From the NCBI GenBank assembly GCA_000004695.1, contig CM000152.2:2464001-2528000 (forward strand): DNA of 64,000 nucleotides, given 5' to 3'. Below the pieces are notes generated by a model that saw only the letters and a list, made by a program, of their open reading frames with translations, made no database searches and was not told where the DNA came from. Positions 46,417 to 48,172 of this stretch are shown one piece after another. Each line of letters starts with the position of its first letter. Position 1 is the stretch's first letter. Made by a program: the position numbers and the translations under genes. Source of the DNA: Dictyostelium discoideum (taxonomy: Eukaryota).

Positions 46417-48172
46417 ATGTCAAAAACATTGTATATCTTTGATTTTGATGGTACATTATTTAAATCACCAGAACCAAATCCATCAACATGGAATCCCTCA
46501 ATAATTGGTAAAATTAAGGGAATGCCAGACGAAGGTGGTTTTGGTTGGTTTCAAGATACAATCACATTAGACGATCCATACGTACCAACAAAACCAGATA
46601 GAGATATTTGGTTTAATAAAAATGTTTTAGATGATGCTTTAAATGCACTCAAACATCCAAATAATGTAGTTTGTAAATATTAATATAAAAATGAAAGAAA
46701 TAATTTTATTTTGATTTTAATTTTAATTTTAATTTTAATTTTAATTTTAATTTTTTATATTTTTTTATTTATTTGTAGGTTTATTAACAGGCAGAACTGT
46801 TTTATATGAAAAAATTATTGATAGAATTTTAGAATCAGTAGAATTAAATTTTCATCATAAAGGATTGAAACCATTGAATATTGCAAATTCTCAAAGGGAA
46901 ACTACATTTGATTTTAAAAAGAGATTCATTTTGAATTTAATGCATAATACTTACAAGGATGAAATTAAGAGAGTAGTCGTATATGAAGATAGAATTAATC
47001 ATGTAGATTTATTCAAATCTTTTTTAGCTTCATTACCAAGTTTAGATTCATATAAAGTTAAACATATTGAAGAGGAATCAAAATATTTAGAATATCAAAC
47101 TGAATTAGCATTGGTTGATTATTTAGTTACAAAAAACACTTCTCCAAAAGCTGAGTTAAAAAAACACACAGATTATACTGGTTTGGTTTTAGATAATCAA
47201 TCAATCAATAAGATTTTATCTTTGGTTGAAATTCCAAAAAATTGGTTGTTAAAAGCTCATCATATCACTTTAAATTTAGGTCCAATTAATCATAAGCTTT
47301 GGAAACCAATTGAAAAATCTTCAGATTCAACTGATGAAACAAATGTTTTAAATGAAATTAAAAATTTATCAATCTCTGAATCTTCAACTAAAACAACAAC
47401 AACAACAACAACAATTGTTGTTGATGATGTTTCAACTCAAACAGCTTGTTCTTCAACCACCACAACTACAGCTTCAACAACTGTATCAACTTCAACATCA
47501 AATGATTTTGAAAATATTTATAAGGTTGGAACAAAGTGGACAGCTAAAATTGAAGCAATTGGTTTCAGTCAAAATGCTTTAGCCTTTAAGGTTCAAGGTA
47601 TTCCAACTGCTAATGTAATTCCTCATTGTACAGTTGCAATTCATCCAAACGGTAAAGCATCAGATAGTAATTCAATTAGAAATTGGTATCCAATTAATAC
47701 TTTGAAATTGGGCGAAAGAGTTTGCTTAAACTCTTATGATGAAAGAGAACTATCAATCTATAAAGAATTAATTGAAAAACAAGATCAAGTTAAACTTGAC
47801 TCACCTTCAAAAGGAAATCTCTCCACTGGAAAAAACAAAAAATCAAAGAGTGGAGCTGATACTAATAACACTTTAAAAGAACCAAGTGTTTGTTTTGTAA
47901 CTTTACCATTAGATTTATATGAAACAAATGGTTTAACTTTAAGCGGTGAAATTGTAGAGTGTGGTAAATTATCATATGAAATTCAAAAAGCACCAAAGAA
48001 AGAAAAGATTCAACCATATCCAATCATTCAAAGAGTTGTACCTGAATTATCAAAAGCTGAAATCTTAAAGATTGTCCCATTGGTTACTGATTGGATTAAT
48101 AAATCAAATACAACCGAAATATTAAAAATTGAAAAATATATTAATGATAATTTTAATGATTTTAAAAAATAA
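46417..48172 (+). CDS. Bifunctional HAD-like phosphatase plus 2H (LigT/CPDase-type) phosphoesterase protein, similar in architecture to 'Swiss-army-knife' RNA-repair / tRNA-ligase-associated enzymes. Two exons: join(46417..46672, 46779..48172); 550 codons.
   Basis: - Exon 1 begins MSKTLYIFDFDGTLF; the HAD motif I is DxDGT.
- Donor T|GTAAAT at 46673; acceptor ATTTGTAG at 46777-46778.
- The junction reads NNVV-C-LLTGR (HAD motif II-like).
- The C-terminal half carries two H-x-T/S-x tetrapeptides in hydrophobic context (HHITLNL near 47260; HCTVAIHP near 47625), the hallmark of 2H phosphoesterases. Confidence 0.65.
46713..46756. repeat. (TTTTAA)n, about 7 copies, in the intron of the HAD-2H gene.
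   Basis: Direct reading. Confidence 0.85.

Follow-up and report, generated by a model that had tools for sequence, protein, structure and literature searches.

A HAD_SAK_1 and 2H phosphoesterase fusion gene of Dictyostelium discoideum with a predicted role in RNA 3'-end healing

Introduction

Here we describe a gene in a 64,000-nucleotide stretch of Dictyostelium discoideum DNA (GenBank assembly GCA_000004695.1, contig CM000152.2, positions 2,464,001 to 2,528,000 of the forward strand), which is referred to as the window. The gene lies on the plus strand at 46417-48172, as do all of its features given below. Its spliced product of 549 amino acids (aa) combines an N-terminal HAD_SAK_1 phosphatase domain, a central domain assigned to the 2H phosphoesterases and a conserved C-terminal helical tail. 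We favour, with moderate confidence, the reading that the gene product is a two-enzyme protein for the healing of RNA 3' ends, which would convert a cyclic phosphate to a monoester and the monoester to a hydroxyl; sequence families, predicted folds and analogy with known enzymes point in this direction. A first-pass annotation, made by a model from the sequence letters, had described a HAD and 2H fusion resembling the RNA-repair 'Swiss-army-knife' enzymes, and this description is supported by a match to Pfam family PF10307, by conserved 2H motifs and by relatives that match PF08302.

The N-terminal phosphatase domain

The N-terminal half of the protein is clearly a member of Pfam PF10307, HAD_SAK_1. 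The match scored 158.4 bits against a cutoff of 25.6 (E 2.7e-46) and covered residues 17-205 and profile positions 1-201 of 203; the domain itself extends over residues 1-207, with the part beyond the first exon, up to about residue 207, lying at 46779-47143. Conservation was assessed in alignment A1, whose 10 sequences are dictyostelid orthologues (34-87% identity) and three metagenomic proteins of ~330 aa, phage homologues being included. The catalytic set of all four HAD motifs is intact. Invariant in A1 are D9, D11 and T13 of motif I (D9-F-D11-G-T13, 46441-46455), T89, G90 and R91 of motif II (46787-46795), K132 of motif III (46916-46918) and, at motif IV (E155-D156, 46985-46990), D156 together with R157. 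The two N-terminal elements named in the first-pass annotation were both recovered: IFDFDGTLF, holding motif I, occupies residues 7-15, and the exon junction rebuilds VVCLLTGR, in which motif II is found.

An AlphaFold2 model of this domain has a Rossmann-like HAD fold with a predicted local distance difference test (pLDDT) mostly of 85-96, residues 21-50 excepted. When the domain was compared with solved structures using Foldseek, the best match was Pnkp1 of the bacterial Pnkp1/Rnl/Hen1 RNA-repair complex (E 3.3e-4). All top matches were HAD phosphatases, among them the cap-poor Lem4 and MDP-1, and T4 Pnkp was returned at E 8.9e-3. The domain also has a weak sequence match to PHROG 415, named 'polynucleotide kinase' (E 3.5e-4). 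The cap position of the domain is occupied by an insert (window 46430-46614) with invariant W25, W44, P54, P57 and W65, for which model confidence is only moderate.

The central 2H phosphoesterase domain

Sequence profiles and structure prediction support an assignment of the central half to the 2H phosphoesterases of the CNPase/Trl1-CPD type. According to the alignments and the model, the dictyostelid domain (residues ~215-487) is a compact core broken up by two inserts. Its first lobe (residues 215-263, 47165-47311) holds the beta-1 aromatic residue Y218 and the proximal motif H247-I-T249-L (HITL, residues 247-250, 47261-47272), which lies on a predicted beta-strand at residues 247-251. The second lobe (residues 328-403, 47504-47731) holds N364 (47612-47614) four residues before the distal His, the distal motif H368-C-T370-V (HCTV, residues 368-371, 47624-47635) on a predicted beta-strand at residues 368-373, K378, S382-N383 and W388, with N383 (47669-47671) standing 15 residues after the distal His. 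The lobes are separated by a Thr/Ser-rich low-complexity insert (residues 264-327, 47312-47503), which is predicted to be disordered (pLDDT <50), varies among dictyostelids and is missing from the compact homologues in the alignments. A second, dictyostelid-specific insert (approximately residues 404-455, 47732-47887), formed by one long helix and then a disordered Lys/Ser-rich stretch, precedes the closing beta-strands of the domain (residues 456-487, 47888-47983), which include a conserved L-T-L-S-G strand. These two inserts and the C-terminal tail go beyond what was seen in the first sequence-only reading.

A profile of residues 208-549 and orthologues (A2) was searched against 1.84 billion representative proteins and yielded 1476 relatives at E<=0.001, of which 443 reached E<=1e-10. 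Most of the 1476 are stand-alone proteins of 115-145 aa, with two match blocks around the two H-x-T motifs. Taken by themselves, H-x-[ST]-x tetrapeptides are weak evidence; a third one, HNTY, is found inside the HAD domain. HITL and HCTV, which the first-pass annotation had placed in a 2H context, both sit in family columns that are 95-100% conserved among 157 representative relatives: His 95% and Thr 96% in the proximal motif, His 100% and Thr 99% in the distal one. About the distal His, the same representatives conserve Asn at -4 (93%), Lys at +10 (83%), Ser-Asn at +14/+15 (97%/96%) and Trp at +20 (94%), and the window protein carries every one of these residues. No unrelated family was found for the C-terminal half, and its histidines align with those of the 2H relatives.

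The relatives connect this domain to a named family. PF08302, tRNA_lig_CPD, which represents the cyclic phosphodiesterase domain (CPD) of the fungal/plant tRNA ligase Trl1, was matched by 102 of 140 relatives at E<=0.01 (best E 2.4e-8); some passed its cutoff of 23 bits (P0036 with 29.1 bits, P0116 with 33.0 bits), and others fell just under it. No dedicated Pfam model for the compact 2H clade, which numbers at least 1476 representatives, turned up, and its members reach only the Trl1 CPD model, mostly near or below the cutoff. NCBIfam gave no match. Sequence searches of solved structures in the PDB with the whole protein, the C-terminal profile A2 and a compact 2H profile (A3) returned nothing real. 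In PHROGs, the window 2H core and a phage protein (P0011) matched the unnamed family phrog_36523 alone, and the stand-alone 2H proteins P0028 and P0035 had no match. A second structural model, covering residues 208-549 and based on a 40-sequence alignment, reached a pLDDT of 82 and a predicted template modelling score of 0.69, and placed both H-x-T motifs on beta-strands.

The crystal structure of the Candida albicans Trl1 CPD (PMC7145591) shows Asn763 (-4) and Asn782 (+15) contacting the active-site phosphate through water bridges and a beta-1 Tyr stacking on the nucleoside; the active-site residues of that clade are Tyr647, Gln678, His687, Asn763 and Asn782. Judged by spacing rather than by direct alignment, the equivalents in the window protein are Y218 (beta-1), N364 (-4) and N383 (+15), which are 85-96% conserved.

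The C-terminal tail

The protein ends in a helical tail of ~60 aa (residues 490-549, 47990-48172 including the stop codon) with an invariant W524. It is modelled with a pLDDT of ~96-98 over most of its length, and a local hidden Markov model found it in 40 of the 157 representatives, always behind the 2H domain. The tail matched no Pfam family, and a search with its consensus gave no PDB structure by sequence.

Distribution and fusion partners

The named proteins with the HAD-2H-tail architecture belong exclusively to Amoebozoa (Dictyostelium spp., Polysphondylium, Tieghemostelium, Cavenderia, Acytostelium, Synstelium, Copromyxa, Pyxidicula, Clastostelium, Soliformovum and Balamuthia) and to chytrid fungi (Powellomyces and Gorgonomyces). 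A shorter, tail-less HAD-2H form occurs on phage-like contigs, one of them of 316 kb, and the 2H domain stands alone in crAss-like, Bacteroides and Lak phages. A second, word-indexed homologue search was dominated by low-complexity words and gained little.

The fusion partners of this 2H domain act on RNA ends. Among 140 relatives, 36 carry HAD_SAK_1 and three an AAA_33 kinase-like domain, and further partners are CCA-adding-type nucleotidyltransferases, a second LigT-type 2H domain and a phage MuF polyvalent protein. The compact 2H domain is also found inside metagenomic polyvalent proteins of 1100-2900 aa (P0043, P0082, P0116, P0061 and P0127), where its companions are CCA-adding-type nucleotidyltransferases, GmrSD_N, GNAT, a second 2H domain of LigT/Acb1 type, or phage MuF. 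In Bacteroides phage PhiCrAssBcn2 (crAss-like; OQ221537.1; L003), a stand-alone 2H gene at 4986-5393 lies 1.1 kb upstream of a TROVE (Ro60-like) gene at 6506-7924; TROVE proteins have been proposed to be RNA-repair scaffolds (PMC7824862). The corresponding region of Bacteroides phage DAC19 consists entirely of 'hypothetical' genes.

The HAD-2H-tail orthologue of Balamuthia mandrillaris (KAL6056658.1, P0048) is named 'Protein-lysine N-methyltransferase efm5', which looks like a mis-annotation.

Proposed function and comparison with known systems

In phage RNA repair, as laid out by Iyer et al. 2021 (PMC7824862, section 3.4.9), 2H enzymes resolve 2',3'-cyclic ends first, and HAD phosphatases, either fused to a kinase or belonging to the 'Swiss-army-knife' family, then take off the linear phosphate; that paper cites Burroughs & Aravind 2016 for the 'Swiss Army Knife' RNA-repair HAD phosphatases. 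The domain types assigned to both of these published steps are fused in a single polypeptide in D. discoideum, which leads us to propose the passage from cyclic phosphate through monoester to hydroxyl. The central 2H domain would open the 2',3'-cyclic phosphate of an RNA to a phosphomonoester, most likely a 2'-phosphate by analogy with CNPase and the Trl1 CPD, and the N-terminal Mg-dependent HAD phosphatase would then remove the monoester to leave a 2',3'-diol end. Such an end could be extended or ligated by 3'-OH-dependent enzymes and would no longer be a substrate for RtcB-type ligation. The conserved helical tail would, at a guess, bind RNA or a partner protein. The analysis shows the identity of the domains, their intact catalytic residues, their fold matches and their fusion; we infer the substrate class, the order of these steps and the regiochemistry of the product.

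Within the HAD_SAK_1 family, the Dictyostelium domain is full-length, high-scoring and complete in its motifs, and it shares the predicted role of removing the linear phosphate after ring opening. The jumbo-phage members are described as mostly stand-alone (PMC7824862), whereas in Dictyostelium the domain shares one polypeptide with a 2H domain and a helical tail of eukaryote type. No biochemically characterised HAD_SAK_1 member was found in the literature.

With the Trl1 CPD (PF08302) and vertebrate CNPase, the central domain has in common the predicted 2H fold and both H-x-T motifs and, judged by spacing, the Asn residues at -4 and +15 and the beta-1 aromatic residue; the tendency of that clade to stand beside a P-loop kinase-like domain is seen in some relatives. 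The Dictyostelium core is much smaller, at ~125 aa compared with ~200-250 aa in the Trl1 CPD and CNPase. Unlike in Trl1, the 2H domain is partnered with a HAD phosphatase and not with a kinase and a ligase, and the expected end is therefore a diol instead of a 2'-phosphate that is retained for Tpt1.

T4 Pnkp and bacterial Pnkp1 contain the HAD-type 3'-end phosphatase that is, by Foldseek, the closest solved fold to the N-terminal domain, and the predicted overall task, end healing, would be the same. The Dictyostelium protein differs from them in having no kinase domain, and in that the opening of the cyclic phosphate is attributed to a 2H domain of its own and not to the HAD site.

Human ANGEL2 is a 2',3'-cyclic phosphatase consisting of a single domain of the EEP family. 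The predicted net reaction of the Dictyostelium protein would be alike, RNA 2',3'-cyclic phosphate to 2',3'-OH in a eukaryotic cell, in opposition to RtcB-type ligation; fold and mechanism are unrelated, and in the Dictyostelium protein two domains would act in sequence. A more far-reaching proposal, which we consider rather unlikely, is that the protein serves as a eukaryotic eraser of RNA 2',3'-cyclic phosphates, a two-domain functional analogue of ANGEL2 that came from the phage RNA-repair arsenal and was fixed in Amoebozoa and chytrids with a new helical module. If this were true, the protein would decide the fate of cleaved RNAs such as tRNA halves, splicing intermediates and damaged tRNA 3' ends: some could be religated by RtcB, and the others would be tailed, CCA-repaired or degraded.

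Weighing of the evidence and alternative explanations

Several observations weigh against a role in RNA end healing. RNA-end activity is, for every member of the family, a prediction from sequence. As regards the HAD domain, an hhalign comparison of A1 with T4 Pnkp (the T4 Pnkp sequence used was confirmed to be 100% identical to the T4 gene) aligned motif I only, with a probability of 12.7%, and the link to Pnkp-type phosphatases for this reason rests mainly on structure. On the side of the 2H domain, the full-length window protein matches no 2H Pfam model at E<=1, and the window 2H core with its inserts removed scores 11.9 bits on PF08302 (E 0.15), under the cutoff of 23. Membership in the 2H superfamily is therefore transitive, by way of the relatives, together with the predicted fold. 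Of the domains that the first-pass annotation proposed to look for, the Pfam scan returned HAD_SAK_1; the protein's own sequence reached no 2H family model. Foldseek with the 2H half returned CNPase almost exclusively, but the matches are weak (best E 0.035), probably because of the disordered inserts. By spacing, two of the Trl1-CPD active-site residues are not conserved: where the Trl1 CPD has a Gln at -4 and a His at +5 relative to the proximal His, the window protein has L243 and L252. Furthermore, no RNA ligase was seen adjacent to the phage and jumbo-phage HAD-2H homologues in the gene contexts examined; within 8-10 kb of the phage HAD-2H genes only a PARP-like gene, a tRNA-synthetase-like fragment and a UvrD helicase were present. 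Finally, the HAD cap position (residues 14-66) is taken up by an insertion of ~50 conserved residues.

HAD phosphatases and 2H enzymes both include members that act on small molecules, which also weighs against an RNA substrate. The same two domains might convert 2',3'-cyclic nucleotides to 2'- or 3'-nucleoside monophosphates and then to nucleosides, or might act on the tRNA-splicing by-product ADP-ribose 1'',2''-cyclic phosphate (Appr>p), giving ADP-ribose 1''-phosphate and then ADP-ribose. We regard this as somewhat unlikely. A small substrate could be enclosed by the cap-position insert, metabolite phosphatases are very common among HAD phosphatases, and the top fold match of the 2H half, CNPase, has been crystallised with mononucleotides such as 2'-AMP and 2',3'-cAMP, according to the entry titles. 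Against this, both the family and the nearest structures of the HAD domain are polynucleotide phosphatases from RNA-repair systems, the 2H clade occurs in fusions with RNA-acting CCA-adding enzymes and kinase-like domains, and the conserved C-terminal module and the Lys-rich linker fit the binding of a macromolecule better.

The abundance of stand-alone homologues in crAss-like, Lak and Bacteroides phages would suit a signal-quenching enzyme inherited from phage counter-defence, in which the 2H domain would break down oligonucleotide signals (2'-5' or 3'-5', cyclic or linear), as do Acb1, the poxvirus cGAMP phosphodiesterase and coronavirus ns2, and the HAD domain would trim the resulting phosphates. 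Matches of this kind score well below CNPase, the sequence profiles indicate the Trl1 CPD rather than Acb1, and the Pfam Acb1/LigT matches in the giant proteins sit on another, second 2H domain, which makes such a function highly improbable. That the protein is a non-enzymatic, nucleic-acid-binding OB-fold protein is scarcely credible and was rejected on the domain and fold evidence, as nothing favours it except the name carried by the AX4 entry and two orthologues, whereas the folds seen in the models are those of a HAD domain, a 2H domain and a helical tail, neither enzyme has lost its catalytic residues, and a Pfam scan of the protein gave no OB-fold family at E<=1.

The concept of this family is already present in Pfam and in papers of the Aravind group, and the two-step scheme of 2H followed by HAD has been published as a prediction; for this reason the advance made here over that scheme is incremental until the protein is tested. 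New are the demonstration that the 2H domain of this gene is split, the conserved tail, the distribution in Amoebozoa and chytrids and the correction of the annotation; the HAD_SAK_1-2H-tail architecture may already be contained in Burroughs & Aravind 2016. Literature searches with the protein accessions and with HAD_SAK_1/DUF2410/PF10307 found no papers. RNA cyclic-phosphate removal is carried out in animals by an unrelated enzyme and has elsewhere been predicted mainly from phage genomics. Should the predicted chemistry hold, D. discoideum would be a genetically tractable organism in which to study the removal of RNA cyclic-phosphate ends.

Gene structure and annotation

The gene starts with an ATG at 46417 and ends with a TAA at 48170-48172. 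Exon 1 (46417-46672) encodes residues 1-85 and the first base of the Cys86 codon and holds HAD motif I. It is followed by a phase 1 intron of 106 nt (46673-46778, GTAAAT...TGTAG), which splits the Cys86 codon so that the junction reads NNVVC|LLTGRT, and by exon 2 (46779-48172), which encodes the rest of the HAD domain, the 2H domain, the inserts and the tail. Excision of the intron yields the annotated AX4 protein exactly: the 549-aa sequence agrees at every residue with D. discoideum AX4 XP_641530.1 (EAL67557.1, UniProt Q54WC8). The gene model is therefore the accepted one, and the coordinates and splicing proposed in the first-pass annotation were correct. XP_641530.1/Q54WC8 and two orthologues are named 'OB fold-containing protein', a misleading name that is corrected here; other orthologues are named 'Swiss Army Knife' in UniRef.

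The intron carries a (TAATTT)9 tandem repeat at 46701-46754, and the 5' flank (46290-46416) contains long stretches of poly(A) and poly(T), as is typical of intergenic DNA in Dictyostelium. The window as a whole is AT-rich (~22% GC), and its open reading frames (ORFs) hold polyN/polyQ tracts. On the opposite strand at the gene there is nothing beyond a trivial ORF of 53 aa, and no Rfam family was matched in the surrounding 45000-49500.

Neighbouring genes

The gene is directly flanked by an ALMT-like transporter gene and by a gene for a type II topoisomerase in convergent orientation. The former (42085-45939, plus strand) encodes a protein of 1284 aa, of which the C-terminal third is an ALMT/FUSC-type transporter preceded by a very long polyN/polyQ-rich sequence. 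The latter (48313-52167, minus strand) is a type II DNA topoisomerase, likewise of 1284 aa, whose N-terminal extension is long and Ser/Asn-rich; its stop codon and that of the fusion gene are 140 nt apart.

The first-pass annotation had pointed to Trm5, Thg1 and a tyrosyl-tRNA synthetase (TyrRS) as neighbours. All three are in the window, TyrRS at 11392-12840 (34 kb away), the Trm5/TYW2 methyltransferase at 22411-23181 (24 kb) and Thg1 at 31682-32554 (14 kb), and unrelated genes lie between them and the fusion gene. To our knowledge Dictyostelium is a eukaryote without operons, so these tRNA-related neighbours carry no functional weight, and the neighbourhood was rejected as evidence for function. 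No tRNA genes were found in the window.

Two further ORFs of the window may be mentioned. An ORF at 35148-35747 on the plus strand matches the bacterial L,D-transpeptidase catalytic domain YkuD (PF03734) just above the cutoff (25.5 bits against 23.4); such a domain would not be expected in an amoeba, and horizontal transfer may be its origin. At 7727-8482 on the minus strand, an ORF matches the beta-barrel pore-forming family BB_PF (PF18063) with 220.7 bits, and saposin-like and counting-factor-associated genes are located near it at 5013-5780 and 6281-6934.

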